Below, in pieces: positions 9,322 to 24,148 of a stretch of 59,037 nt of DNA; the stretch's first letter is position 1, and the number at the start of each line of letters is the position of its first letter. The DNA is from a bacterium (GTDB lineage Bacteria > JADJOY01): positions 1 through 59,037 of the forward strand of contig JAXLQJ010000046.1 in the NCBI GenBank assembly GCA_046331705.1, written 5' to 3'. Below the pieces are notes generated by a model, which saw nothing but the letters and a program-made list of their open reading frames with translations, was not told the DNA's origin and searched no databases. Both the position numbers and the translations under genes were made by a program.

Positions 9322-9966
9322 CTACAGCATCCCCAGCTCGAGCTTCGCCGCCTCGGTCATCATGTCGGGCGTCCAGGGCGGCTCCCACACCACGTCCACC
9401 TTCGCCGACTTCACGCCTTCCACCGACGCGACCTTGCCTTCGACCTCGGGTGGCAGTGAGCCGGCAACCGGGCACATGGGCGAGGTGAGGGTCATGACCA
9501 CCCACGCGTTTTGTTCCGAGTCGACCTCGATCGAGTAGATCAGCCCGAGCTCGTAGATGTTGACGGGGATCTCGGGGTCGTAGCAGGTGCGCAACACGTT
9601 CAGGATGCTTTCGCCGATCGCGCCCTCGGGAACGGGCGTGGCCTGGCGCATGTCCGCGGTCCATTTGCGTGCCGGCGCAGCGGCGTTCGCGACCTCGGCC
9701 GCAGTCTCCGCCGCACCCTCCACCGATGGCGGCACTGGCGGCGTCGGCACCGGTACGGGCGCCGAGGAATCGCCGTTCACCGGCTTCGGCAGCGCTGGAT
9801 CCGGCACCGGCTGCGGTCCGCTCGCGGGCCGCGTGCTCGCGTGTGGATCCTCGTGGTGGGCGTAGTGCTTGGGTGCGTCGAACGGATGATCTTTCGCCGT
9901 TCGCGCCGATCGCATCAGCCAGCGACCAGCCAAGTCCTTCAGAGTGTCGACGATCGGGCCTACCAT
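9322..9966 (-). CDS. sufT: SUF-associated DUF59 Fe-S assembly protein (SufT-like) with long N-terminal extension
   Basis: YDPEIPVNIYELGLIY, MTLTSPMCPVAGSLP, VWEPPWTPDMMTEAAKLELG; last gene of the suf operon. Confidence 0.9.
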   Translation of the reverse strand: MVGPIVDTLKDLAGRWLMRSARTAKDHPFDAPKHYAHHEDPHASTRPASGPQPVPDPALPKPVNGDSSAPVPVPTPPVPPSVEGAAETAAEVANAAAPARKWTADMRQATPVPEGAIGESILNVLRTCYDPEIPVNIYELGLIYSIEVDSEQNAWVVMTLTSPMCPVAGSLPPEVEGKVASVEGVKSAKVDVVWEPPWTPDMMTEAAKLELGML

Positions 9967-9999
9967 CGAAGTCCTCGCATCTCAGCTTCTACGTGAGCT

Positions 10000-10458
10000 T
10001 CATTCGGTCGAGATGGTCTCGCCGGTGTTCGCGATGGCGGAGTGGAGCGTGTGCCACGCGAGGGTCGCGCACTTGACCCGGGTGGGGTACTCGGTCACTC
10101 CGGCGAACACGGCCAGCTTGCCCAGCTCGACTTTCGGTTGGTCGGTCGGGACGGCGGCGGATGGCGCCACCATCGCGTGGAAGGTGTGGAAGAGCGCTTC
10201 CGCCTCGGCCTCGGTTCGGCCCTTCACGATCTCGGTCATCAGCGAGGCCGATGCTGTCGAGATGGCGCAGCCCGCTCCCTGGAAGGTCGCGTTCTTGACG
10301 ATGCCGTTCTCGACCTCGAGAAAGACCGTGAAGCGGTCGCCGCAGAGCGGGTTGTAGCCGTCGGCCTTGCGGTTGGCGGTGGCGAGCACCGCGAAGTTCC
10401 GCGGCCGTCGACCGTGGTCGAGGATGACTTCCTGATAGAGATCGCGTAGCTCGGACAT
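10000..10458 (-). CDS. sufU: SufU/NifU-family Fe-S assembly protein
   Basis: [46 protein letters not shown] overlap with sufS. Confidence 0.95.
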   Translation of the reverse strand: MSELRDLYQEVILDHGRRPRNFAVLATANRKADGYNPLCGDRFTVFLEVENGIVKNATFQGAGCAISTASASLMTEIVKGRTEAEAEALFHTFHAMVAPSAAVPTDQPKVELGKLAVFAGVTEYPTRVKCATLAWHTLHSAIANTGETISTE

Positions 10459-11753
10459 CAGCCGAAGAGCTCCCTCACCTTGGCGAGACCGTGGATCAGC
10501 ACGTCGATCTCGGCGGGCGTGTTGTAGAAGGCGAGCGAGGCGCGCGCGGTCGCGGGGATGCCGAAGCGCTCCATGACCGGCTGGGCGCAGTGGTGACCCG
10601 TGCGGATCGCGATGCCTTCGCTGTCGAGGATCGTGCCGATGTCGTGCGGGTGGATGTTGTCGAGCAGGAACGACACGACGCTCGCCTTGTGCGCGGCGGT
10701 GCCGATCAGCTTCACGCCCGGCACCGCGCCGATCCGCTCCGTGGCGTACGCGAGCAAGTCCGCTTCCCACGCCGCCGCCGCATCGAAGTCGATGGATTCG
10801 AGGTAGTCGATCGCGGCGCCGAGGCCGATGCCGCAGCCGATGTCCGGCGTTCCGGCCTCGAACTTGGCGGGCAGATCGGCGTAGGTGGACTTCTCGAACG
10901 TGACCGAGCGGATCATGTCGCCGCCGCCCTGGTAGGGCGGCATCGCGTCGAGCAGCTCGGCCTTGCCGTAGAGGATGCCGGACCCGGTGGGGCCGAAGAG
11001 CTTGTGGCCGGAAAGCGCGTAGAAATCGCAATCGAGCGCGCGCACGTCGACGCGCAGGTGGGGTGCCGCCTGCGCGCCGTCCACCAGCACCTTGGCGCCC
11101 GCCTGGTGCGCGAGCCGGACGATCTCGGTCACGGGATTGATGGTGCCGAGCGCGTTCGAGACGTGGTTCACCGCCACCAGCTTCACGCGTGGGCTCAGGA
11201 GCTTCTCGTACTCGTCGAGACGTAGCTCGCCTGCGTCGTTGATGGGGATCACGCGGAGCCGCGCGCCGCTGCGCTCGCACAGCATCTGCCACGGCACGAT
11301 GTTCGAGTGGTGCTCGAGGCCGCTCACGATGATCTCGTCGCCGGCGCCCACGAAGCGGCTGCCGAACGACCAGGCCACCAGGTTGATGGCCTCCGTGGTG
11401 CCGCGCACGAAGATGGTCTCGCGCGTCGAGCCGGCGTTGATCCAGCGCCGAATCTTGTCGCGCGCCCCTTCGTACGCCGCGGTCGCCTTCTCGCTCAGCA
11501 GGTGGACGCCGCGGTGGATGTTGGCGTTTTCCTCGGTGTAGTAGCGAGTGATGGCGTCGATCACCACCTGGGGCTTCTGCGAGGTGGCGGCGTTGTCGAG
11601 GTAGACGAGCGGCTTGCCGCGCACGCTACGCGACAGGATCGGGAAGTCGCGCCGCACGCGCTCGACGTCGAAGCCGCTGCGCGGCGGCGAGGTGCGCGCG
11701 GCGTGCTCGCGTGGCGCTGCCGAGCTCTCGATGGGTGTTGCCGACGGGATCAT
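10458..11753 (-). CDS. sufS: cysteine desulfurase SufS
   Basis: [37 protein letters not shown] overlap with sufD. Confidence 0.97.
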
Positions 11754-13078
11754 GCCTTCTCCTGAATCGCGACCGGCGACCAGGCGCTCAACCACTCCTC
11801 GAGCTCGGCGCGGACCGATGCGGCGCGCACGCGCGCCACCACCTCGCCGGCGAAGGCCTGCGTGAGCACCGAGCGCGCCTCGCTTTCGCCGAGCCCGCGC
11901 GAGCGCAGGTAGAAGATCGCCGCGGGGTCGAGCTTGCCGATGGTCGCGCCGTGCGAGCACTTCACGTCGTCCGCGTAGATCTCGAGCTGCGGCTTGGTGT
12001 CGGCGCGCGCGTCCTTCGAGATGAGCAGGTTCCGATTCACCTGCTGCGCGTTGGTCTTCTGGGCGTGCGGCGCCACCAGGACGCGCCCGTTGAAGACGCT
12101 TCGGGCCGCGCCGTCGAGAACGGACTTGTAGAGCTGGCGGCTCTCGCAATGCGGCTGCGCGTGCTCGATCGAGGTCTGGCTGTCGACGTGTTGGTTGTCC
12201 GCGCCGACGGTCAGGCCGTCGAGGGTGGCCGTGGCGCCTTCGCCGTCGAGGATCGTGCGGATCTCGTTGCGCACCAGACCGCCGCCCAACGCGATCCAGC
12301 GCGAGGCGAGCTGGCTCGCGCGCGCCTGGCGCACGTGCAGCGAGCCGACGTGGAATGCGTGGGTGCCCTCGCGTTCGAGCTTCACGTGCTCGATCACCGC
12401 CGCGGGTCCGAGCACGATCTCGGTCACCGCGTTGGTGAAGTGGGTGCCCGCGCCGAGGGTCACGAAGCGCTCGACGACGGTGATCTCACTCGCCTCCTGC
12501 GCGACGATCAGCACCCGCGGGTGGCTCACGATCGGCTCGCTCGCGCCACTCGCGATGAACACCAGGTGGATCGGCTTCTCGATCGCCACGCCGCGCGCCA
12601 CCTGGATGAGCGCGCCGTCCTGGACGAACGCCGAGTTGAGCGCCGTGAACGGCTCGGCCTGCGAAACGTTCACGCGCCCGAGGTGAGGCTCCACCTCGGC
12701 TGGGCGCTCGCGCAGCGCCGCCGCCAGCGAGTCCACGCGCAGCCCGCCGCGCGCGGCGGCGGCGTTCGAGAGGTGCGGGGCGTAGTGTCCATCCACGAAC
12801 ACCAGCTCCGCGACCGCCGCACCGCCCAGGCTGTGCGGCGCGATCGCCTCGGGCCGAATGGCGGACGCGCTCGCCGCCTCGGCGAGCCGGAAGGCCGTGC
12901 GCGCGATCGGCTCGATGTTGGTGTAGCGCCACGCTTCGTGGCGCGTGCTCGGCAGACCGAGCTCGCCGAAACGCGACATCGCCGCGTCGCGCAGCGAGCC
13001 GAGCCACGGCGCGTCGGCGGAGGCCGCGGGCCTCACGAACGTCGCGAGGCTGGAGAGAAACGGAGTCGGCTGGGGCAT
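11750..13078 (-). CDS. sufD: Fe-S assembly protein SufD
   Basis: [44 protein letters not shown]. Confidence 0.97.
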
Positions 13079-13089
13079 GGGGCGATTCC

Positions 13090-13881
<792 letters not shown>

Positions 13882-13963
13882 GGTCGACTCTTCCTCTCGA
13901 TCCCTTCGTTCTCGATGTTCGATCGGTCGCTCACGCCTCGAGCCGCGAGCCCCGAGTCCAAGC

Positions 13964-15412
13964 TCATCCCACGCTGCCTTCGAGGCTCACGCTCAAGAGC
14001 TTCTGCGCCTCGACCGCGAATTCCATCGGCAGCTCCTTGAAGACCTGCTTGCAGAAGCCGTTCACGATCATGTTCACGGCGTCCTCGGCGGAAAGCCCGC
14101 GGCTCTGGCAATAGAAGACCTGGTCCTCGCCGATCTTGGACGTGGACGCCTCGTGCTCCATCACCGAGGACGTGTTCTCGACCTCGATGTACGGGAACGT
14201 GTGGGCGCCGCACTGATCGCCCATGAGCAACGAATCGCACTGGGAGTAATTCCGCGCGTTCGTCGCGCTGGGCTTGATGTGCACCAGCCCGCGGTAGGTG
14301 TTCTGGCCGTGACCGGCGGAGATTCCCTTCGACACGATGGTGCTCTTCGTGTTCTTGCCGATGTGGATCATCTTCGTGCCGGTGTCGGCCTGCTGGTAAT
14401 TGTTGGCGACCGCCACCGAATAGAACTCGCCCACCGAGTCCTCGCCGATCAGCAAGCAGCTCGGGTACTTCCAGGTGATGGCGGACCCGGTTTCCACCTG
14501 GGTCCAGGAGATCTTCGATCTCTTGCCGCGGCACGCGCCGCGCTTGGTCACGAAGTTGTAGATCCCGCCTTTTCCGTTCTTGTCGCCTGGATACCAGTTC
14601 TGCACGGTCGAGTACTTGATGGTGGCGTTGTCGAGCGCCACCAGCTCGACCACGGCCGCGTGCAGCTGGTTCTCGTCGCGCATCGGCGCCGTGCAGCCCT
14701 CGAGGTAGCTCACGTACGCGCCCTCGTCGGCGATCAGCAGCGTGCGCTCGAACTGTCCGGTGTTCTTGGCGTTGATGCGGAAGTAGGTCGAGAGCTCCAT
14801 CGGGCAGCGCACGCCCTTGGGGATGTAAGCGAACGATCCGTCGCTGAAGACCGCCGAGTTGAGCGCGGCGAAGAAGTTGTCGCCGGTCGGCACGACCGAG
14901 CCCAGGTATTTGCGGACCAGCTCGGGATGCTCGTGGACCGCCTCGGAGAACGAGCAGAAGACGATGCCCAGCTCGGCGAGCTTGGATTTGAACGTGGTGG
15001 CGACGGAAACGCTGTCGAACACGGCGTCGACGGCGACGCCAGCGAGCATCTCCTGCTCCTTCAACGGGATGCCGAGCTTCTCGTAGGTCTTGAGCAGCTC
15101 CGGATCGACCTCGTCGAGGCTCTTGGGGCCCTCCTTCGGTGCCTTGGGGGCCGAGTAGTAGATGATGTCCTGGTAGTCGATCGCCGGGTAATGGACCTTG
15201 GGCCACGCCGGCTCCGTCATCTTCGTCCAGTGACGGTACGCCTTGAGCCGCCAATCCAAGAGCCATTGCGGCTCGTTCTTCTTCTGCGAGATGAGCCGAA
15301 CGACCTCCTCGCTGAGGCCCGGCGGGACCGATTCCGCCTCGATGTCGGTGACGAAGCCGTACTTGTATTCCTGCGTCGTCAGGTTCGAGAGGGTCGTCTC
15401 GGAGCTGGACAT
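13964..15412 (-). CDS. sufB: Fe-S assembly protein SufB
   Basis: [58 protein letters not shown] at 15412. Confidence 0.98.
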
Positions 15413-15480
15413 GGCTGAAACTCCTGGGCTCGTTTTCGTTTGGTGTGGGGCCGGGCAGCGCTGCGCGTGGTCGACGTCGC

Positions 15481-16038
15481 TCACGCCCCGCTGGGCGGCG
15501 GCAACGGGGCCGTCAGCACGCTGGGCGCGAGCGGCGCCAGCGGCGTCGAGAGAGCGGCGTGGTTGCGAGGCCCGCTCGGTTCCGTGATCTGCACGGTCTC
15601 GAGATTCACACGGGTGCTGCGCTGCGCCGGTAGCGGCTGCGTCATCTCCGCCAGCGTCAGTCCCGCGAGCGCGTCGCGAATGACTTGGTTGATGCGTTGC
15701 CAGTTGGTACGCACCGGGCAGAGCGTCTCCTGCGTGCACGCTCCCGGGCGCTCGAGGCTGCATTCGGTGATCGCCACCGGCCCTTCCAGGGCGGCGACGA
15801 TGTCGATCATCGAGATCCGGTCCGGGTGACGGGCCAGGCTGTAGCCGCCCTTCACGCCGCGGTGCGACACCAGCAGCCCGTAGCGTCCGAGCACCTTGAG
15901 GATCTTGCTGACCATCGGCAGCGGCAGCGCGGTCTCTTCGGCCAGGTCGCGCGCCGTGTGGACCTCGCCGGTGGGGGAGGCGGCGAACCGGGTCAACAGC
16001 ACGATCCCGTAGTCCGTTTGCTTCGTCATCCGAAACAT
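15481..16038 (-). CDS. Rrf2-family SUF system transcriptional regulator
   Basis: [22 protein letters not shown]-x6-C-x5-C ([16 protein letters not shown]); heads the suf operon. Confidence 0.93.
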
Positions 16039-16055
16039 GTTTGGGCGCTCCGACC

Positions 16056-16123
16056 GCGATACAGAACTCGTACGGTACGAATTTACCGGGTGTTCAAGCG
16101 ATAGGCAACTCGATTGGTCCTAT
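16056..16123. promoter_or_regulatory. putative paired Rrf2 operator sites upstream of the suf operon
   Basis: GCGATAcagAACTCGtacGGTaC (16056) and GCGATAggcAACTCGattGGTcC (16098), 42 bp apart. The second contains the inverted repeat ATAGG-N13-CCTAT. Confidence 0.5.
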
Positions 16124-16256
16124 TTTCGCCGTCCCGCACAGATGGCGCCGTAATGCGCGGTAATTGTTTGCTATTCAGTAATCGCTGGGGGGTGTGGACA
16201 GCGCTTCTCGTGCCAACCGAGGCGGCAGGCGTGCCGAGAAGGCCTCCGGGCAGGCG

Positions 16257-17270
16257 TCAGGGACGGATGCCGAGCCGGCTCAAGGGGGAGAGCGACCGCA
16301 GCACCAGCCCGGGATCGCCCAGCGCGCTTCCGACTCCCGCTACTGCCCGAGAAACATTGAGGTTCTTCCGGTTGCAGTCCTTGCAGAGCGGAATCTCGTC
16401 GTAGCGACCCTGTGCCTGCTTGAGCCGCAGGCTGCGCATGGACCCGCCTCGCCAGACGAGGTCTAGCGAGTCCACGTTGAGGTCGCCGACGGTCTCGCAA
16501 CCGTCGAAGTCGTAGCAGCACGGCACCACCCGTCCGTCCCAGTAGACGGCGAGCCCTCGCCAGGTTCGGATGCACGGGCTGGCCGAGCTCGACGGGGGTG
16601 GGCCGACGACGCGGTCGCCGATCTTGCGCACGTGCTCGCGGTTCACGCCGAGCGGCTTCAAGCGCACCGCATCGACGCCAGACTTGCGCCAATGCTCACG
16701 GAATGACTCGGTTTCCTCGGCGTTCTCCCGCTGCACGATCATCTGCACCACGGTGAACGGGCCACGCCCGGCGCGGCGCCTGAGCTCGAGGAACGCCTCC
16801 AGATTCGCCACCGTGCGCGCGAAGTCTCCGCCGCGGCGGATGGCGGCGTAGGTATCGGCGCGAAAACCGTCGATGGAGAACGACACGAAGTCGAGGCCGG
16901 ATTCGACCAGGCGCGCGGCGCGCTCGGCGTCCACGTGGAGGCCGCTGGTCTGGAGATACGAGCGGATGCCGTTCGCCCGCAGATGGGCGATGGCATCGAA
17001 GATTCCGGGATGGAGCAATGACTCGCCCGCGAGGCAGAGGTCCACCATGCCCACGCGGCCAGCCGCCTGGTCGACGATGCGGCGGAACAGGCCGAGATCC
17101 ATGTCGCCCACGCGCCGGCCGCTCCAGTTGCGCGGGCACATGATGCAACCCAGGTCGCAGCGGTTGGTGAGCTCGACCGTGAGCTCCATCGGCCAACCGC
17201 CGGGGTCGGGGTCGCCTCGCAGGTAAGCCCAGCTCAGCGCGAGGCGGTTGCGCGTCTGCGACCAGCTCAT
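16257..17270 (-). CDS. radical SAM protein with SPASM/twitch domain
   Basis: ELTNRCDLGCIMC, GESLLHP; C-terminal CIRTW..DGRVVPCCYD..VGDL..PLCKDC. Confidence 0.92.
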   Translation of the reverse strand: MSWSQTRNRLALSWAYLRGDPDPGGWPMELTVELTNRCDLGCIMCPRNWSGRRVGDMDLGLFRRIVDQAAGRVGMVDLCLAGESLLHPGIFDAIAHLRANGIRSYLQTSGLHVDAERAARLVESGLDFVSFSIDGFRADTYAAIRRGGDFARTVANLEAFLELRRRAGRGPFTVVQMIVQRENAEETESFREHWRKSGVDAVRLKPLGVNREHVRKIGDRVVGPPPSSSASPCIRTWRGLAVYWDGRVVPCCYDFDGCETVGDLNVDSLDLVWRGGSMRSLRLKQAQGRYDEIPLCKDCNRKNLNVSRAVAGVGSALGDPGLVLRSLSPLSRLGIRP

Positions 17271-17301
17271 GGCGGGGGGAGCGCGCCGGTGCGCGCTCGA
17301 C

Positions 17302-18867
17302 TCAACAGGATGCGGCGGTCACGCGGTCCGCGAGCCATTTCTCGGGGAGGAAGCGGAACCAGCGGCGCGCCAAGCGCAGCTTGGCGATCGGCCGATAGAG
17401 AGCCGCGAGCACGCGCAGCGGCCAGGTGCCGTACTCGCGCACCTTGCCGTCCACGAAGATCGACAGGAAATACGCGGCTTCCTGTGCCTTGCGCTGCGAT
17501 TCGGTCATCCACGGGTTGTTGGAGCGATCGAGCGCAAAGCGCGCCCAATCCTCGGTGCGCGGCGGGAACTGGAACCCCGCGCGCGCGGCGATGTGGTAGG
17601 CGTCGGTGCCGGGGTAGGGCGCCAGGCAGTAGACGGGCGAGACCAACGCCTGCGGGTTCTCGCGTACCACCTCGAGAAGCAGGTCCAGGGTCGCCGCGAA
17701 CTCGGAGGCGCTCTCCTCGGGAAAGCCCGACATGAAGTTGTACCAAGGCACGATGTCGTGCTTGGCGAGCCGGCGGTTGATCTCGCGCACGTCGGCGATC
17801 TTCAGGCCCTTGCCGATCTCGCGCTGGATCCGCTCGGAGCCCGACTCCACCCCCATGTCCACGCGCACCATGCCGCTGCGCCTGAGCAGCGCGAGCTCGT
17901 CGTCGGAGAGCTTCTTGAGGATCGGAATGACCGTCCCTTGGACCTGGTAGGTGATGTCCCAGCCTTCGCGGAGAATGCCCTCGGCGATCTCGAGCGCCCG
18001 CTCCGTGCGCGTGAAGTACGAGTCGTCGGTGATGGAGACGTGGCTCACGCCCGGCAGGCTCGCCCGCAGGTGACGCAGATGCTCGAGCACCGTCGCGGCG
18101 CTCTGGCCACGCCAGCTCACGCCGAAGAGCGAGTTCGTGTAGCAGTAGCCGCACGGATAGGGGCAGCCGCGCGAGGTCTCGAAGTACGCGGTCTGGCGTC
18201 CGCCACGCAAGAACAGGTACCCGGGTCCGGCGAGGTGGTACGGGATGGGGTCGAGCCGGTCGAGATCGAGCTTGCCGCGCGGCGGGCCGAGCCGCACGGC
18301 GCCCTCGTCGTCGAGGCTCGCGGTGCCCGGGACCTCCCACGCCGGCCGGCCGGCGGCGAACGCCTCCACCAGCTCGGCGAAGGTGGTCTCGCCCTCGCCG
18401 ATCACGACCACGTCGACGAGCCCGCCGGCGAGGGTTTGCTCGGGGAGCAGCGTGCCGTGGATGCCGCCCCACACCACGGGCGTCGTCGGCGAGATCTCCC
18501 GCACCGCGCGTGCGATCGCGAGGGCGTGGAGGAGCTGGCGACCGGTGACGGACGTGATCGCGACGCAGATCGGCCGGCGCGCGAGGAGCTGGGCGAGCGT
18601 CGCACGCCACTCGCGATCGACGCGCTCGTCGACCAGCACCACGTTGCGTTCCCGCGCCACCTTGCGGGCCGCGCTGAGCAGCGACAGCGGAAGCGTGGGG
18701 TGGCTCTTCCACGCGTCGAGGATCTCGGTCTTGGCCTGGACCAGCACCACCTCGGGGTCGTGACTGGCCCGCGACCCGACGCCCGCGGCTCGCGATCTCG
18801 CGACCGAGACCGACGGGGGAGCGGGCGCCGGGGGCGCCTCCGCGCGAATCGGAGCGACGGATGGCAT
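17302..18867 (-). CDS. cobalamin (B12)-binding radical SAM protein
   Basis: VVWGGIHGT, VVIGEGE, ETSRGCPYPCGYC, DDSYF, MGVESGS, FMSGFPEE, PYPGT. ATG at 18867 overlaps the upstream stop (TGATG). Confidence 0.93.
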   Translation of the reverse strand: MPSVAPIRAEAPPAPAPPSVSVARSRAAGVGSRASHDPEVVLVQAKTEILDAWKSHPTLPLSLLSAARKVARERNVVLVDERVDREWRATLAQLLARRPICVAITSVTGRQLLHALAIARAVREISPTTPVVWGGIHGTLLPEQTLAGGLVDVVVIGEGETTFAELVEAFAAGRPAWEVPGTASLDDEGAVRLGPPRGKLDLDRLDPIPYHLAGPGYLFLRGGRQTAYFETSRGCPYPCGYCYTNSLFGVSWRGQSAATVLEHLRHLRASLPGVSHVSITDDSYFTRTERALEIAEGILREGWDITYQVQGTVIPILKKLSDDELALLRRSGMVRVDMGVESGSERIQREIGKGLKIADVREINRRLAKHDIVPWYNFMSGFPEESASEFAATLDLLLEVVRENPQALVSPVYCLAPYPGTDAYHIAARAGFQFPPRTEDWARFALDRSNNPWMTESQRKAQEAAYFLSIFVDGKVREYGTWPLRVLAALYRPIAKLRLARRWFRFLPEKWLADRVTAASC

Positions 18868-19958
18868 CAAGCGCCCATCGGCGCCACCGGCAGCGAGACG
18901 CGGTTGGACTTGAGCGCGTTGCGCCGGTGGATTTCCTCGACGGGCAGGAAGGACTGGCCGCTTTCGCGGATCGGCTCGAGGTAGGTCTGGATGAACTCCT
19001 TGTCGTCGCCCGCCGGGCAGCCAGGCTGCACGTGCCCGAACGCTTCCTCGCCGAGCATCCGCTTCCAGATCGCCGCCATCGGCTCGCTCCGCACGTTTCC
19101 GAACGAGACGTGGGCCCGCGGGCAGGGCGCGACCTCGCCGGTCGCCGTCACGTAGATCTTCTCGATGCCCGCCGGGCAGCCTTCCTTCACGTAGTTCGAG
19201 CCGCCCTCCCAGCGCACGTGCGGCACCTCGAGCATCCGCTCGTAGGCGCGGATCTCGTGCTGGCGAAGGAGCTGGTCCTCGTCGTCCTTCCAGGCACCCA
19301 CCGAGCACGCGATGTTGACGGTGAGCAGGCAGCCCAGGTTGCGCGCCAGCTCCACCATCTCCCAGGCGTCGCCGTTGGCGAGGTTCTCGCGGGTGATGAC
19401 CGTGCACAGGTAGACCTCGAGATCGAGCGCCACCGCGCGGCGCACGCCGGCGACGAGCTTCTCGAAGGCGCCCACCCGCGCCTTCCGCGCGTCGTGGATC
19501 TCGGGGCGGGCGCTGTCGAGCCCCACCGAGAGGATCCGGACGCCGGAATCCTTGAGGCGTCGCACGGTCTCGTCGCTCAGCATCATCCCGTTGGTCGCGA
19601 GCGACACGACGGCGCGTTCGGGCTGGGCGGCGGCCAGCAGATCGTAGATCTCGCGCCGCATCAGTGCTTCACCGCCGGTGAAGTTGATGTTGAGCGCGCC
19701 GAGCTCGATGCACTCGGCGAGCACCCGTCGCGCGGTGGGGACGTCGATCACGTCACCCTTCGCCTCCATCAAGTCCCATGCGGAGCAATGTCCGCAGGCC
19801 GCGTTGCAGTCGTTCGATACCGAGAACTCGACGCCGCGCAGCACCGGCTGCTTGAGCACCAGCAGCTTGAAGTAGTTCGCGGCGATGCGCGGCAGGATGT
19901 ACGGATAGCGGGTCATGAGCCCGCGGTGCTTGCCGACCAGTCGCGTAAAGGTGTTCAT
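18867..19958 (-). CDS. radical SAM protein with SPASM/twitch domain
   Basis: CNAACGHC, FTGGEALMR, TNG, GLDS; GCPAG..GEVAPCP..FGNVRSEPMAAIW. GAGGTG RBS before ATG at 19958. Confidence 0.92.
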   Translation of the reverse strand: MNTFTRLVGKHRGLMTRYPYILPRIAANYFKLLVLKQPVLRGVEFSVSNDCNAACGHCSAWDLMEAKGDVIDVPTARRVLAECIELGALNINFTGGEALMRREIYDLLAAAQPERAVVSLATNGMMLSDETVRRLKDSGVRILSVGLDSARPEIHDARKARVGAFEKLVAGVRRAVALDLEVYLCTVITRENLANGDAWEMVELARNLGCLLTVNIACSVGAWKDDEDQLLRQHEIRAYERMLEVPHVRWEGGSNYVKEGCPAGIEKIYVTATGEVAPCPRAHVSFGNVRSEPMAAIWKRMLGEEAFGHVQPGCPAGDDKEFIQTYLEPIRESGQSFLPVEEIHRRNALKSNRVSLPVAPMGA

Positions 19959-19991
19959 GCGGCTTCTCACCTCGTTGAAGTCGTCGAACCG

Positions 19992-21164
19992 TCAGGGCGC
20001 GGCGGCGCTCACGGGCGGCACGGCCCAAGTCGCCTCGGCGCGGCTGGCGGTGGCGGCGCGCGGCGCCGGGCCAGGCTCGAGGAAACAACATCCCACGCAC
20101 GACGGGAACGGTCCCCGGCTGCGGAGATGGCTGCGGAACTCGCGGAACTCGGGACCATTCCAGATCTCGCGGATCGAGTGTTGGCGCACCGAGCGGGTCG
20201 AGAAGAGCTTACAGGCGTAGACCTCGCCGCGCGGCAGCACGCCGACCCGCGACCACGGATGCCGGCAGCTCGAGGTGCCGAGGTCCACCGCCTTGCGGAT
20301 GTGGTGCTCGAGGTGGTCGGGAGTGACGTCGAGCGGGATCAGGAACGCCTCCGTGGGGCCGCCCGTGAAGCTCGCCAGGATGGCGCGCAGACGAGCGGCG
20401 AGCCCGTCGAGCGACGCCGTGTGCGGGGCCTTGGTGCCCTCGCCTCGGGCCAGCACGCCGTCGGCGCCAGGTCGAAGCGTGACCTTGCCCGGGTCTTCCT
20501 CCTTCAGCACGAAGTAGTCGACCGCTTCGGCGCGGGCGAGCTGGGCGAGCGCTTCGAGCGCGCCCAGGTTCTCCTTCAACACCGCGCTCTTGAGCGTCAG
20601 CTTGGGAAAGCGGCGTCCGAGCCGGTTGCGCTCGTCGCGAAGCGTGCGGAGCGCGGCGAGCGCGCGATCGAACGAGCCCGCCCGCCGCGTGATCGCGTCG
20701 TGGACGTCGCGCGGCCCGAGGATCGAGAAATCCACGGCGGCGAGCCCGGGGCGAGGCAGTCCGCGGCTGCCGAGCGCGGCCAGCGCGCGCGCGCCTGCGG
20801 CATCGAGCAAGGTGCCGTTGGTCTCGACCGTCACCAGCCGGAGCGCCGCGAGACGCGTGAGGATCGCCACCAGGTCCGCGCGGGCGAAGGGCTCGCCGCC
20901 GCTGATCGACACCAGCCGCGCCGTGGGCAGATCGCGCACCACGCGCTCGATCTCCTCCGCGGTCAGGTGGTCGGCGTCGGGCTGCATCGGCGTGGACGCT
21001 TCGCCGAGCGTGCCGCGATAGAAGCACATGCGGCAGTCGAGATTGCAGCGATCGGTGACCTCGAGGAAGAGCTGCGCTGGCGGCAGCGCCCAGCCGCCGA
21101 GTCGCCGGCCGAGGAAGCCGTGCGCCGACATGCCGAGCGCGTAGACGTCCTTCAGCCCAGGCAT
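19992..21164 (-). CDS. radical SAM protein with SPASM/twitch domain
   Basis: EVTDRCNLDCRMC, SGGEPF, ETNGT, HDAI; CRHPW..GEVYAC..IREIWNG..PSCVGCC. Confidence 0.92.
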   Translation of the reverse strand: MPGLKDVYALGMSAHGFLGRRLGGWALPPAQLFLEVTDRCNLDCRMCFYRGTLGEASTPMQPDADHLTAEEIERVVRDLPTARLVSISGGEPFARADLVAILTRLAALRLVTVETNGTLLDAAGARALAALGSRGLPRPGLAAVDFSILGPRDVHDAITRRAGSFDRALAALRTLRDERNRLGRRFPKLTLKSAVLKENLGALEALAQLARAEAVDYFVLKEEDPGKVTLRPGADGVLARGEGTKAPHTASLDGLAARLRAILASFTGGPTEAFLIPLDVTPDHLEHHIRKAVDLGTSSCRHPWSRVGVLPRGEVYACKLFSTRSVRQHSIREIWNGPEFREFRSHLRSRGPFPSCVGCCFLEPGPAPRAATASRAEATWAVPPVSAAAP

Positions 21165-21198
21165 CTCGAGCCCATCGGCGCGCCGGCGGTCGAGCGAA

Positions 21199-22581
21199 TC
21201 ACCAGTCGCCCTGCTCGCGATGCAAGGCGTTGTAGATGTCGAAGGCCACGGTGCCGTTCTTGGTCACGTAGCACATGTGGCAGCTCGAGGCTTCGCGCAG
21301 GTCGAGGGTGTCGACGTTGTGGAACTTCTCGACCGTGAGGAAGAGCAGGCCGCGCGGCGGCTGGCGCGTGGCGTAGCGCAGGATGTCGCCCACGGCGGGC
21401 GCGAAGCGCGCCAGCTTGAGACCGCGGCCCAGCACGGCAGCGGGAGAGTCGAGGCGGGTGATGGGCGCGTAGTCGTGCGCGTCGCCCACCACCACCATCG
21501 GCAGGGTCGAGAGCTTCTGGCGCAGCTCCTCGCGCCCGGTGACCCGGTAGAGGCGCGACAACCACGTCACCGAGTCGACGAAGTCGCTCGGTCGGATGCG
21601 TCCGCCGGTCTCCGACTCGATCGCCGCCAGCGCATCCGCCACGTGGGTGGAGTCCGGCACGCCGGCGATGGACTCGTTCCGCACCACCCGCGAGTGCGGG
21701 TAGAAGCTCACCCAGAAGATGCCGTTCTCGAGCGCGAATCGGATGATCGGACCGATCTGGTCGGTGTTGAGGTCTTGGACGAGCATCACCGCGAACTGGA
21801 CCTTGATGTTCGCGGCCCGCAGCTTCTCGATCACCTCGAGCTTGTTGTCGATGAGCCCCTGACCCCGGGTCTTCTCGTAGATCGCGTCGTCGAAGCCGTC
21901 GAATTGCAGGATCACCCATTCGAGACCGGCAGCCTTGAGCTCCTCGATCTTCCCGGGGCGCGTCAGCAACGAGCCGTTGGTGTTGAGCCGCGGCACGTAG
22001 CCACGCGCCTTCACCGCCCGGATGAGCTCCGGCAGGTCCTTGCGCACCGTCGGCTCGCCGCCGATCAGGCAGACGTTGGGGCGGAAGCCGCGCGCGGGGG
22101 GCTCGGGCAGCACGTGCTCGATCATCGCCGGGGTCAGCAGCCCGGTTTCGATCTCGTTGGCTCCCGCCAGGCACACCGGGCAATGGAAATTGCAGCGCCC
22201 GGTGACGTTCAGCATGATCGTGTACGTCCACTCGAAGTGCCGGTCGCAGCGGATGCCGCGCGCGCACTCAGGCACCTCGCAACCCTTGTCCTTGGGCAGC
22301 ACCGCGTCGATCGCGCGGTAGAGTGCCGCGTCCTTCCAGTAGAGATCGGTGCGGCGCCCGTGGCTGGGGCAGTCGCGCCACATGTGGAGGTCGCCGTCGC
22401 GCTCGAAGAGCAGCGCCGGGACGACCACACGGCAATCCGGACAGAGCGAGACCGTCTCCGCCAGTGCGGTCGCCGGGCGCGGCGCGCCGGCGAGCAGCGC
22501 TTCGGGAGCGATCCGCAGCGGCCGGGGCGTCGCCGCCGGCAGGGCTTCCGGCGCGGTGAACGGGAGGATCTGCGCGCTCAA
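21199..22581 (-). CDS. radical SAM protein of the tetraether lipid synthase (Tes/GDGT-MAS, MJ0619)-like family, divergent
   Basis: N-terminal TVSLCPDC..CPSHG..DLYW metal site; Cys cluster CEVPECARGIRCDRH; NVTGRCNFHCPVC; GGEPTVR; LNTNG; LQFDG; GGRIRPSDF; C-terminal CHMCYVTKNGTVAFDIYN. TTG start uncertain. Confidence 0.75.
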   Translation of the reverse strand: MSAQILPFTAPEALPAATPRPLRIAPEALLAGAPRPATALAETVSLCPDCRVVVPALLFERDGDLHMWRDCPSHGRRTDLYWKDAALYRAIDAVLPKDKGCEVPECARGIRCDRHFEWTYTIMLNVTGRCNFHCPVCLAGANEIETGLLTPAMIEHVLPEPPARGFRPNVCLIGGEPTVRKDLPELIRAVKARGYVPRLNTNGSLLTRPGKIEELKAAGLEWVILQFDGFDDAIYEKTRGQGLIDNKLEVIEKLRAANIKVQFAVMLVQDLNTDQIGPIIRFALENGIFWVSFYPHSRVVRNESIAGVPDSTHVADALAAIESETGGRIRPSDFVDSVTWLSRLYRVTGREELRQKLSTLPMVVVGDAHDYAPITRLDSPAAVLGRGLKLARFAPAVGDILRYATRQPPRGLLFLTVEKFHNVDTLDLREASSCHMCYVTKNGTVAFDIYNALHREQGDW

Positions 22582-22801
22582 GGAACGGAGGTGGGAACGC
22601 TCGATGGTGCGTTCGCGAACGAGTGGCGCGCGAGGGGGACGCCGCGCGGATGCTAGCTCAGATCCACGACCCGTTGCCAGTTGAGGGGAGCTTGGAGCGC
22701 CGTCGCGGTCCCGGGTTCCGAGGGGAGGATGCCGGCGCGGCCCGCACCGTCCGTGCGCGAGGCGAGGCGCGGTGACGATGACGGTCGCGGGGGTGCCGGC
22801 G

Positions 22802-23632
22802 TCAGTTGGCGGCAGGGCAGTTCGGATGGCGCTTGATCAGGGCGCGCAGCTCGGGGCTCTGGCGCACGAGGGTCTGCTTCAAGAGGTGCGCCAAGAGTGA
22901 CGGCGGTGTCGGCCCCCACTGGGCGATGTTTCGGATCAGCAGCGACGACTGGTAGGTCTGGCGGCAGAGCAGCGCCGTGGCCTTGCCGTCGAGTGGTAGC
23001 CCGGCCAGCGCGCTCAGCGCGCGGCCCTCGCTGCGCAGCACCAGGTCGACTTTCTCCTCGGGGCTGCACTGCGCGAAACGCGAGCGCAGGCACTCGCGCG
23101 CGGTGCCCTTGTTTCGATCCGTGACCTCGTGGCTCTGGCAGACGTTCCAGATGTCGAGGCACCGACGGTGCGAGAGAATGCGGCGCAGCAGGTGGATTGG
23201 AGTCTGCGGGTTGCGCAGCAGCAGGCGTTGCACCTCGCCATCGCCCACGATCACGCCCCGCGCTCCCAGCGCATCGAGCCCCGCAGCGTTGCCGTGGTGC
23301 GCCGCCACCAGTCGCGCGTGGACGAGGCCGAAACGCGGGTTGTCGAGCAGCCGCCGGACGACCCGCGAGACGGGGTCGTAGCAGAGCGCGGAGAGCTCGG
23401 GGTCCGCGACCTGCGTCGCCATGCTCTCGCGGATGTCGGCGCCGAGCTGATGCAGCGCGGACTCGAAGAGCGCGCGATGCACGTCGCCGCCGGCGGCGTG
23501 GGGCGCGCGCAGCGGCGCGCGGTGCTCGATCAGCGCCACCTGATCGGTCAGGTCCGGGATCTCGTCGGTTCGCGCCTCTCCCGCGCCCGAGCGACCTCCG
23601 GTTTTCGTGCCGCCGTGGGAGCGTGTGGCCAT
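22802..23632 (-). CDS. hypothetical helical-repeat (LRV/HEAT-like) protein
   Basis: Repeated LLxNPxTP/HPNCP-type motifs (LLDNPRFG, LLRNPQTP, IKRHPNCP). Confidence 0.65.
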   Translation of the reverse strand: MATRSHGGTKTGGRSGAGEARTDEIPDLTDQVALIEHRAPLRAPHAAGGDVHRALFESALHQLGADIRESMATQVADPELSALCYDPVSRVVRRLLDNPRFGLVHARLVAAHHGNAAGLDALGARGVIVGDGEVQRLLLRNPQTPIHLLRRILSHRRCLDIWNVCQSHEVTDRNKGTARECLRSRFAQCSPEEKVDLVLRSEGRALSALAGLPLDGKATALLCRQTYQSSLLIRNIAQWGPTPPSLLAHLLKQTLVRQSPELRALIKRHPNCPAAN

Positions 23633-24148
23633 GGCGAGCGTTCCCCGCGCCGCATTGCACGGCCCGACGCGGAGGCGGGGGCGCGGGCCGAGGCGCGACC
23701 TCGGTACTTCACGACTCGAGCCTAGCAGCTGGGGCGACGCGTCGTGACGGGGCCCTCGCGGTGCCGGCGACCGAGCTCGCAGGCTGGCTCGGTGCGCGCT
23801 TCCGGTAGCGGATCGGTGACGGGGCAGGGCGAGAGATGGTGATGCACGTTACGGTCCTGTCGGCGTACCGATCCGCCACGTTTCCTCGGGGGGACGTTCG
23901 CCCGCCACCGCGCTGCCCCGCTTGCTGCCGCCCGCCGCAGCCGAACCGGTGGCTCCGGAGAACGCCCGAGAAGTCACGCGTTTTGGCGGTGGGAGCGCGA
24001 GCCGCTCGGGCGCGCTCGCGCGCGGACCGTTCGCGTCGACGTCGAGCTTGCGCCGATATTTCGTCGAAGGCACCACGGTTGCAGCGGCCTGACGCCGTGC
24101 CCAGGCGGGTGGTGCGGCTCGGGTGGCATCCAGAAAGGTGGCGACTGC

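Follow-up and report, generated by a model that had tools for sequence, protein, structure and literature searches.

A conserved cassette of five radical SAM genes headed by a variant member of the Tes/GDGT-MAS superfamily

We describe here a cassette of five co-directional radical S-adenosylmethionine (SAM; rSAM for radical SAM) genes, R1 to R5, spanning positions 22581-16257 on the minus strand of a bacterial contig (JAXLQJ010000046.1, assembly GCA_046331705.1) whose full 59,037 nucleotides are the window analysed. The five genes are one transcription-sized cassette, real and conserved, and the product of the lead gene, R1, is, by sequence comparison and a structure model, a genuine member of the tetraether lipid synthase (Tes)/GDGT-MAS superfamily over its whole fold. 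R1 belongs to a clade, termed here type A, in which the cysteines of the C-terminal cluster of the archaeal enzyme are largely replaced, and members of this clade recur next to genes for a B12-binding rSAM enzyme. An initial annotation of this DNA had proposed that the cassette might build a membrane-spanning lipid or one resembling the brGDGTs (branched glycerol dialkyl glycerol tetraethers). Our analysis upholds the gene arrangement reported there and the kinship of R1, and does not support the lipid-coupling role. In the open reading frame (ORF) map, the cassette genes are laid out as follows.

R1: 22581-21199, minus strand, 460 amino acids
R2: 21164-19992, minus strand, 390 amino acids
R3: 19970-18867, minus strand, 367 amino acids
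R4: 18867-17302, minus strand, 521 amino acids as called
R5: 17270-16257, minus strand, 337 amino acids, last gene of the cassette

Each protein carries a single CX3CX2C motif (R1 C130/134/137, R2 C40/44/47, R3 C55/59/62, R4 C235/239/242, R5 C38/42/45) and matches the Pfam Radical_SAM domain (PF04055) with 69-84 bits against a cut-off of 29.5. From R1 to R5 the Pfam domains run Zn_ribbon_HMPTM with rSAM, rSAM with SPASM, rSAM with SPASM, B12-binding with rSAM, and rSAM with SPASM, in agreement with the order of Tes-like, SPASM, SPASM, B12-binding and SPASM genes first proposed; that all five share a strand and a CxxxCxxC motif is likewise confirmed by the ORF map and motif positions. The intergenic distances of 31-34 bp and the overlap described earlier apply to R1/R2 (34 bp), R4/R5 (31 bp) and R3/R4, which share one base in a TGATG stop/start overlap at 18869-18865. 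They do not apply to R2/R3 as called, where the gap is 21 bp, or 33 bp if R3 begins at an internal ATG at 19958. The overlap ATG of R4 is retained in two loci of the same genus, and the start of R4 is uncertain, as an alternative gene call begins at residue 40 (~117 nt downstream) and residues 1-33 are unaligned in three other genomes. All five proteins score below cut-off with every NCBIfam model. The ORF map and Pfam place no glycosyltransferase, transporter, peptidase or small ORF inside the cassette, and its reported lack of a precursor peptide holds as well.

The source genome (8.17 Mb, 118 contigs, 95.7% complete; the window is contig C46) is rich in rSAM genes, with 142 PF04055 matches, most of them to B12-domain types, and dozens of B12-rSAM tblastn matches. 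In a scan with a hidden Markov model (HMM) made from the five cores, which returned 126 hits, five rSAM genes stand in a row nowhere but in the cassette; the other hits fall into two runs of four, one of three, 14 pairs and 82 singles. By rough arithmetic, with rSAM genes at ~2% of all genes, ~2e-5 five-gene runs would be expected by chance. A run of four co-directional rSAM genes at C7:102528-107300 begins with a 40%-identical paralogue of R4, and a further run of four lies at C6:239574-244331.

Across the six species genomes of the phylum in the collection searched, an R1-family match is found in all six, R1 orthologues (86-92% identity) in four of the five other genomes, and an R3 orthologue in this genome and all five others. 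In both genera of the family, the order R1-R2-R3-R4 is kept as far as the contigs permit, and R5 follows R4 in L009 and L010, the two loci whose contigs extend that far. In a further locus of the same genus (L063, G002:C40:18-1108), the R3 orthologue lies in three frames (residues 3-71, 72-189 and 188-366), its two frameshifts being assembly errors or signs of a decaying gene; that contig begins inside the cassette. The initial annotation had suggested neighbourhood conservation as a check, and the outcome is divided: all five genes stay together in one bacterial family only, and beyond it what remains is R1 with R4, with or without R3. Near-identical DNA, with at least half of the sampled words, is present in 15 sequencing runs from activated sludge, wastewater and anaerobic digester metagenomes. 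Contigs of 150-320 nt from RNA libraries (four runs, three studies) cover stretches of each of the five genes with identities of 95% or more, one of them crossing the R1/R2 junction. They give a weak hint of transcription of the cassette, DNA carry-over being possible.

The description of the lead gene as Tes/GDGT-MAS-like proved sound across the whole fold. By Pfam, R1 combines Zn_ribbon_HMPTM (52.1 bits) and Radical_SAM (82.4 bits). Its sequence matches the GDGT-MAS structure 7TOL with E 6.9e-46 over residues 34-345, and the R1-family profile (alignment A1) matches GDGT-MAS at 1.4e-88. An AlphaFold2 model from a 19-sequence alignment (predicted local distance difference test, 86.2; predicted template modelling (TM) score, 0.86) is aligned by Foldseek with 7TOL and 7TOM at E 1.8e-31 and 3.9e-31, with TM scores by query of 0.72 and 0.75 over 483-486 columns at 26% identity; the next entry after GDGT-MAS is MoaA, at E 1e-11. 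The ESM Atlas places R4 and R1 in generic B12-rSAM and Zn-ribbon rSAM clusters with archaeal Tes-like structural neighbours, adding nothing to Pfam and Foldseek.

R1 is not a Tes orthologue. It scores 177.2 bits against the NCBIfam Tes model (NF045702, residues 43-346), for which the cut-off is 450, and its top model, TrsS (NF045646), gives 190.3 bits over residues 42-336 against a cut-off of 490; none of the 29 matches to NF045702 across the source genome exceeds the cut-off of that model. Of 1.84 billion database representatives, 13,022 match R1 at E<=1e-3 and 157 at E<=1e-30, and only ~45-60 of these are full-length matches. In a quick, midpoint-rooted FastTree phylogeny of 85 sequences, several of them of skewed composition, the full-length R1 family (57 rows) is split with 100% local support from the 28 other superfamily members, which include sequences labelled tetraether lipid synthase or HMPTM.

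The metal sites show where R1 departs from the archaeal enzyme. Passages of PMC9433317 and PMC13459092 describe in GDGT-MAS a rubredoxin-like site (C9X2C12X20C33X2H36), a [4Fe-4S]N cluster held by three Cys and one His, the SAM cluster, and a [4Fe-4S]C cluster held by three Cys and a labile Met439; the first substrate radical, in passages of PMC13459092, is kept on the last of these as a C-S adduct while C-C coupling proceeds. R1 has a rubredoxin-like site of identical spacing (C47X2C50X20C71X2H74) and the SAM cluster motif (C130X3C134X2C137). A putative N-cluster motif, C101X4C106X5C112X2H115, lies at the aligned place, with the spacing CX4CX5C and not the CX3CX2C of GDGT-MAS. At the three Cys positions of [4Fe-4S]C, R1 has Ser358, Cys434 and Asp448, while Glu418 stands at the position of Met439 and Tyr438 at that of Tyr459. 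Read from its ligands, R1 probably carries two [4Fe-4S] clusters and one Fe, and it would be unable to use the Tes coupling mechanism as described. Because R1 is without two of the C-cluster cysteines and the labile Met, a membrane-spanning or brGDGT-like coupling role has no specific support. No lipid-biosynthesis gene is linked to the cassette.

The same positions divide the R1 family. Scored for N- and C-cluster cysteines, 60 members fall into these groups.

Type A (includes R1): three N-cluster Cys, at most one C-cluster Cys, 18 sequences
Type B: at most one N-cluster Cys, three C-cluster Cys, 40 sequences
Other: two N-cluster Cys, three C-cluster Cys, 2 sequences

The two main types nearly complement each other, in that all 18 type-A sequences have the three N-cluster cysteines and no more than one of the three C-cluster cysteines, and the 42 other members have all three of the latter. 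The type-A sequences group in a single clade (98% support) that is nested among those of type B. The source genome also encodes four other R1 paralogues, all of type B with the C-terminal cluster kept.

Type-A genes keep characteristic company. Metagenome contigs scanned with alignment A1 yielded 28 loci; typing left out two loci with partial genes, L051 and L054, and one, L027, that is identical with the window. Five type-A loci lie outside the genus, two of them (L029 and L030) near-duplicates, leaving four independent ones. A full-length R4-type gene (34-45% identity, at least 150 bits) lies within 2.5 kb at four of the five, an R3-type gene (36-37%) within the same distance at three, and one or the other at all five; on one side of L031, the locus without an R4-type gene, the flank measures only 405 bp. 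Around the 28 type-B genes, in 23 loci, an R4-type neighbour occurs four times and an R3-type neighbour once, and many are near other B12-rSAM genes. R1 adjoins R4 or R3 in unrelated contigs of 56-74% GC content, and the conserved core is R1 with R4, often with R3, which bears out the proposed partnership with a B12-binding rSAM enzyme. The two families also meet in one polypeptide, P0085, in which a B12-binding and rSAM part, 28% identical to R4, is fused to a type-B domain. All-against-all clustering of ORFs across loci left the rSAM families as the only widely shared ones, the exceptions being lineage-restricted (for example a PMT_2-like protein, and a methyltransferase that separates type-B copies standing in tandem). 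Type-A flanks are otherwise unrelated, with genes for a Rieske oxygenase, ferritin, FG-GAP, GDSL, MFS, peptidase M16 and molybdopterin oxidoreductase proteins and, in L029, a DegT aminotransferase.

The surroundings of the type-B relatives are more varied. In the source genome, each of the four type-B paralogues is near B12-rSAM genes: one follows a PMT_2 (GT-C) glycosyltransferase (C21:34522-39593, L056; 44 bits against a cut-off of 26), one lies beside an NAD-dependent sugar epimerase/dehydratase (C26:81048-85893, L057), and two stand in tandem near a multihaem cytochrome-like ORF (C28:85890-95591, L055). L043 (3647-20419) and L042 hold a cluster of about nine rSAM genes, larger than the R1-R5 cassette, with six B12-domain enzymes (one R4-type), one type-B and two SPASM enzymes and two interleaved GT-C-like membrane proteins (weakly PMT_2-like, DUF2079). 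In L034, L037, L038, L039 and L041, tandem type-B pairs are separated by a class-I SAM methyltransferase (~240 amino acids, Methyltransf_11/25), which is a different recurring module of the Tes superfamily. P0100 and P0109 are family 2 glycosyltransferases (GT2) fused to type-B domains. More distant members (P0122, P0124, P0126 and P0154) match only residues 40-336 of R1 and have as fusion partner an N-terminal methyltransferase or a MobA-like nucleotidyltransferase, with an HD domain besides in P0126; these fusions hint at quite different substrates in other branches. Glycan clusters were to have spoken against a lipid role. Such surroundings do occur for some of the remoter relatives, through GT2 fusions, GT-C proteins and sugar-nucleotide enzymes, but not consistently and not at this locus.

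R4, the conserved partner of R1, has an N-terminal B12-binding domain (PF02310, 57.0 bits over residues 60-167, cut-off 32.1), an rSAM domain (71.4 bits, residues 230-397) and a conserved C-terminal segment, YRPIA..R, seen in alignment A2. Its top NCBIfam models are ApyD (126.6 bits against 750) and BchE (113.9 against 481), and its profile matches AprD4 (102 bits), OxsB (85) and TokK (80) in the PDB. A Grs model is not among its 23 NCBIfam hits. Full-length copies, 34-45% identical, adjoin R1 relatives in L028, L029, L030, L033, L035, L042, L043 and L048. By homology of the first domain, R4 would bind cobalamin. A complex prediction for R1 with R4 (alignments A1 and A2) scored 0.00 and is weighed neither way.

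The remaining partners are SPASM-type enzymes of differing reach. R3 (Radical_SAM 83.5 bits; SPASM 30.0 bits, covering only profile positions 1-45 of 67) belongs to the recurring core and is better conserved than any other cassette gene, with copies of 36-40% identity adjoining R1 relatives in L029, L030, L031 and L044. Its top NCBIfam models are AhbD (129.3 bits against 500) and NirJ2 (97 bits), its PDB neighbours are BlsE (E 5.9e-11), SkfB and MoaA, and its 46 database relatives at E<=1e-20 are all unnamed or generic. R2 (Radical_SAM 75.3, SPASM 43.5 bits) has W_rSAM_matur as its top NCBIfam model (85.7 bits against 380) and MoaA as its nearest PDB entry (E 1e-7); copies 82-86% identical are present in four other genomes of the sample (G001, G003, G004 and G005), and no R2 orthologue was seen outside this bacterial family. 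R5 (Radical_SAM 69.2, SPASM 47.5 bits) matches W_rSAM_matur with 107 bits against 380 and, in the PDB, PqqE, its C-terminus matching the twitch region of BtrN; it is 83-84% identical in L009 and L010. Beyond the family, neither R2 nor R5 has a clear counterpart, and both are lineage-specific additions. The full SPASM motif has seven Cys, including CX2CX5CX3C, and binds two auxiliary clusters. To judge by the C-terminal Cys (R2 300, 318, 356, 359 and 360; R3 265, 283 and 318; R5 233, 251, 252, 258, 296 and 299), CX2CX5CX3C is absent from R2, R3 and R5. The designation of three SPASM genes stands in that all exceed the Pfam cut-off (30-47.5 bits against 21.5 for PF13186); the domains themselves are partial and twitch-like.

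What, then, might the cassette act on? From the domains, fold, ligand pattern, clade and conserved gene order set out above we infer both the class of substrate and every chemical step given below. The positive pointers to a substrate are the lipid-enzyme fold of R1 and the glycosyltransferase links of type-B relatives only. Since R1 keeps the whole GDGT-MAS fold, its substrate is most likely long and hydrophobic or amphiphilic, be it a glycolipid, an intermediate linked to polyprenyl or a lipid of the membrane. We lean, with a little less than even confidence, towards a cassette whose radical enzymes tailor, step by step, an endogenous substrate of lipid-like or glycolipid nature that is not encoded in the cluster, and not towards tetraether synthesis. 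Several observations weigh against this preference. No lipid-biosynthesis, acyl-carrier, ether-lipid or isoprenoid genes are linked here or at the four independent type-A loci, no transmembrane helices are predicted in R1-R5, all five of which are predicted to be soluble, and the glycosyltransferase links come from type-B relatives (30-37% identical) and not from the clade of R1. The nearest solved relatives of R3, R4 and R5 (BlsE, AprD4 and BtrN; weak matches) act on soluble sugars, nucleosides and aminocyclitols, and the top NCBIfam models of R3 and R4 include the tetrapyrrole enzymes AhbD, NirJ2 and BchE. Cobalamin binding by R4 is a prediction from domain homology, and AprD4, its top PDB match, is not known to use cobalamin.

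If the cassette does tailor a lipid-like substrate, R1 would take up the chain and abstract a hydrogen through the 5'-deoxyadenosyl radical, with electrons reaching it by way of the surface rubredoxin site and the N-terminal [4Fe-4S] cluster. Tes stores the first substrate radical on its C-terminal cluster; as R1 is without that cluster, it is unlikely to join two saturated tails and seems more likely to perform a step with a single radical, for instance to desaturate, cyclise or rearrange its substrate or to add to a double bond. R4 might next methylate or rearrange an unactivated carbon, and R2, R3 and R5, each with a single auxiliary cluster, could carry out further oxidative steps, for example dehydrogenation, decarboxylation or cross-linking. 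It is tempting to speculate further, in a proposal that we hold to be doubtful and offer for its interest, that the type-A relatives are a new reaction class of lipid-chain-binding radical enzymes without the radical-storing C-terminal cluster and with a dedicated B12-rSAM partner. The cassette would then be a self-contained, all-radical pathway of five steps, by which wastewater bacteria of a barely sampled phylum convert an ordinary membrane lipid or polyprenyl-linked glycolipid into a methylated, cyclised or cross-linked lipid of the envelope that is as yet undescribed.

Two narrower ideas were set aside. An archaeal-type or hopanoid substrate finds no counterpart in the 95.7%-complete genome, which matches neither PcrB/GGGPS nor hopene cyclase; one match of the geranylgeranyl reductase family exceeds its cut-off, on contig C19, away from the cassette. 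The basic-aromatic amphipathic segments that had been quoted as possibly binding the membrane surface do exist, but they are not the strongest hydrophobic-moment windows and no transmembrane helix is predicted, so membrane binding through them was rejected. The segment in R4 is nonetheless conserved.

Other substrates deserve to be weighed against lipid-like ones. The cassette could re-use the Tes-like fold for tailoring a soluble small molecule or cofactor (a sugar, aminocyclitol, nucleoside, tetrapyrrole or other cofactor), a reading we take seriously while judging it unlikely. It draws on the sugar-acting nature of the nearest solved enzymes (AprD4 for R4, BlsE for R3, BtrN for the R5 C-terminus), the AhbD, NirJ2 and BchE scores of R3 (129 and 97 bits) and R4 (114 bits), the predicted solubility of all five products, and the sugar-nucleotide enzymes near some relatives, namely DegT (L029), GalK (L046) and the NAD epimerase/dehydratase next to the C26 paralogue. 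These scores are, however, far under the family cut-offs, as is typical of generic rSAM-core similarity. No gene of a sugar, aminoglycoside or tetrapyrrole pathway is linked at the cassette or in L028, L031 and L033; and R1 matches the complete lipid-binding GDGT-MAS, C-terminal domain included, and nothing else comparably. Maturation of a peptide or protein encoded elsewhere, as in a ribosomally synthesised and post-translationally modified peptide (RiPP) pathway or a set of metalloenzyme maturases, is improbable. SPASM/twitch and B12-dependent rSAM enzymes are common RiPP maturases, the top model of R4 is the RiPP enzyme ApyD (126.6 bits), R2 and R5 score highest with a family of tungsten-enzyme maturases (85.7 and 107 bits), and the genome is very rich in rSAM genes (142 matches). 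Yet every score is far under its family cut-off, R1-R5 have no match to a PqqD-like domain at E<=0.01 and no RiPP recognition element, and R2, R3 and R5 have only 37-54 residues before the SAM cluster. No protease or exporter accompanies the genes. No precursor-like small ORF lies in the cassette or its flanks, and 229 small frames compared across type-A loci gave one marginal pair. Precursor peptides beside homologues had been named as a sign against a lipid product, and neither a conserved small ORF nor RiPP machinery was found; the lead enzyme, moreover, has the fold of a lipid enzyme.

That R1 is a working tail-to-tail lipid coupler, like Tes or Mss, in a cassette that builds a membrane-spanning, branched, brGDGT-like lipid, we consider very unlikely. 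Homology across the whole fold, Tyr438 in line with the conserved Tyr459 of GDGT-MAS, and the prospect of methyl branches from B12-rSAM enzymes argue for it, and passages of PMC8941075 and PMC11868695 propose bacterial Tes homologues, without experimental proof, as brGDGT enzymes. Against it stand the score of 177 bits where 450 are needed, the clade separated with 100% support from the other sampled Tes-superfamily sequences, and Ser358, Asp448 and Glu418 in place of two Cys and Met439, in a type whose 18 members all have at most one such Cys; this is the cluster that, in passages of PMC13459092, carries the C-S intermediate of the coupling reaction. Ether-lipid and fatty-acid genes are not linked to the cassette, and the four type-B paralogues in the same genome, which keep the cluster, are better candidates for such chemistry. 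The chance that the five genes share no pathway at all, being mere neighbours in a genome crowded with rSAM paralogues, is slight. The 142 matches, the many small rSAM clusters and the lack of R2 and R5 orthologues beside R1 relatives outside the family would suit it, but no other run of five exists, and the cassette genes overlap once and are otherwise no more than 34 bp apart; their order is conserved across two genera; R1 adjoins R4 or R3 in unrelated contigs of 56-74% GC; and a fusion of a B12-rSAM enzyme with an R1-family domain exists (P0085). Tailoring of a lipid-like or glycolipid substrate remains the reading we prefer.

The cassette lies in a long minus-strand coding run, in a window of ~70% GC, and is bounded on either side by a non-coding stretch.

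Upstream of R1: 22582-22801, minus strand, 220 bp non-coding without a start-codon ORF, presumed promoter region
R5 to the Rrf2 gene: 16039-16256, minus strand, 218 bp non-coding, probable 3' boundary of the cassette

A scan of 15400-23900 found no promoter-like site, and no sigma-70-like site upstream of R1; it returned four terminator-like sites against 2.4 expected, none of them on the minus strand at the cassette ends. Upstream, at 22802-23632 on the minus strand, lies a gene for a 276-amino-acid helical-repeat protein with no Pfam or NCBIfam family and only a sub-threshold LRV_2 match, retained upstream of the cassette in same-genus loci. A flavin adenine dinucleotide (FAD) protein encoded 1.5 kb upstream is divergent, a generic UbiH-like monooxygenase that scores 49.7 bits against the GG-red-SF model (cut-off 158.8). 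Directly downstream, at 9322-16038 on the minus strand, the gene of an Rrf2-family regulator (16038-15481) is followed by a suf-type operon for Fe-S assembly, which is complete, with two SufB/D-like genes, SufC, SufS, a NifU-like gene and FeS_assembly_P; beyond it are gap-pgk-tpi, a GH1 glycosidase and RecD2. A functional tie between the cassette and the suf operon was considered and set aside as unproven, the adjacency being confined to the genus (L009, L010) and absent at other type-A loci.

These results bear on how bacterial Tes relatives are counted. In passages of PMC8941075, PMC9433317 and PMC11868695 such relatives are widely counted in metagenomes as possible brGDGT makers, none with proven function. 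The three Cys positions of the C-terminal cluster give a simple ligand rule that sorts superfamily clades by their set of metal clusters, with type A falling out as the group without the tail-coupling cluster. As such a clade exists, the presence of a Tes homologue is not proof of a capacity for membrane-spanning lipids, and the rule is relevant to palaeoclimate proxies that use lipids. The cassette and its two- or three-gene core, in turn, offer a compact experimental entry point to the products of these enzymes.

The closest known system is GDGT-MAS/Tes (Methanocaldococcus jannaschii MJ0619; 7TOL, 7TOM; NF045702; PF23545 and PF04055). R1 shares with it the four-domain fold (TM 0.72-0.75), the rubredoxin spacing, a putative motif of three Cys and a His at the place of [4Fe-4S]N, CX3CX2C, and an aromatic residue, Tyr438, at the position of Tyr459. 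R1 differs in being ~66 residues shorter, in the N-cluster spacing of CX4CX5C and not CX3CX2C, in keeping one of three [4Fe-4S]C cysteines, and in having Glu for Met439; it is also bacterial, from a genome with no PcrB/GGGPS match, and encoded with four other rSAM enzymes. The M. acetivorans Tes gene, by comparison, adjoins ferredoxin and geranylgeranyl reductase genes in passages of PMC8941075.

Among the other partners, R4 resembles the B12-rSAM enzymes HpnJ, HpnR, ladderane-type TIGR04072, BchE and ApyD (54-127 bits, NCBIfam) and the solved AprD4 (6FD2), OxsB (5UL2), TokK (7KDX), TsrM (6WTE) and CysS (9N1B), with profile scores of 56-102 bits. It has their N-terminal B12-binding domain followed by the rSAM core, but its scores stay below every family cut-off, it stands about equally far from methylases, cyclases and the diol dehydratase, and it has a C-terminal segment of its own. 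The kinship with AhbD/NirJ- and BtrN-type enzymes lies in the top match of R3 to AhbD, the SPASM domains of R2 and R5 and the BtrN-like twitch of the R5 C-terminus; set against this, scores are at most a quarter of the cut-offs, the auxiliary Cys sets are incomplete, and no tetrapyrrole or aminoglycoside genes are nearby. R1 also has a relative in TrsS, an rSAM (seleno)protein reportedly described by Haft and Tolstoy in 2025. TrsS (NF045646; listed in a table of PMC13188914) belongs to the same Zn-ribbon and rSAM superfamily and is the top-scoring model for R1, though R1 falls far under its cut-off of 490 and the C-terminal third of R1 is unmatched.

R1 would count loosely among the bacterial Tes homologues proposed for brGDGT synthesis by Zeng et al. 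(2022) and a 2025 survey of Black Sea metagenome-assembled genomes (passages of PMC8941075 and PMC11868695). Those surveys use similarity thresholds to MA_1486, and their available passages contain no division of clades by cluster ligands and no rSAM-only context. Bacterial Tes/GDGT-MAS homologues do exist, with functions experimentally unconfirmed (passages of PMC9433317, PMC8941075 and PMC11868695). In Thermotoga and Clostridia a different enzyme, Mss, makes the membrane-spanning lipids (passages of PMC13159169). Our literature search of main texts found no description of an rSAM-only cassette of this kind or of the type A/B ligand split. Placed among these systems, and on the evidence available, the cassette is not a tetraether or brGDGT synthase; it is an uncharacterised, conserved rSAM cassette whose lead enzyme is a variant within the Tes superfamily.

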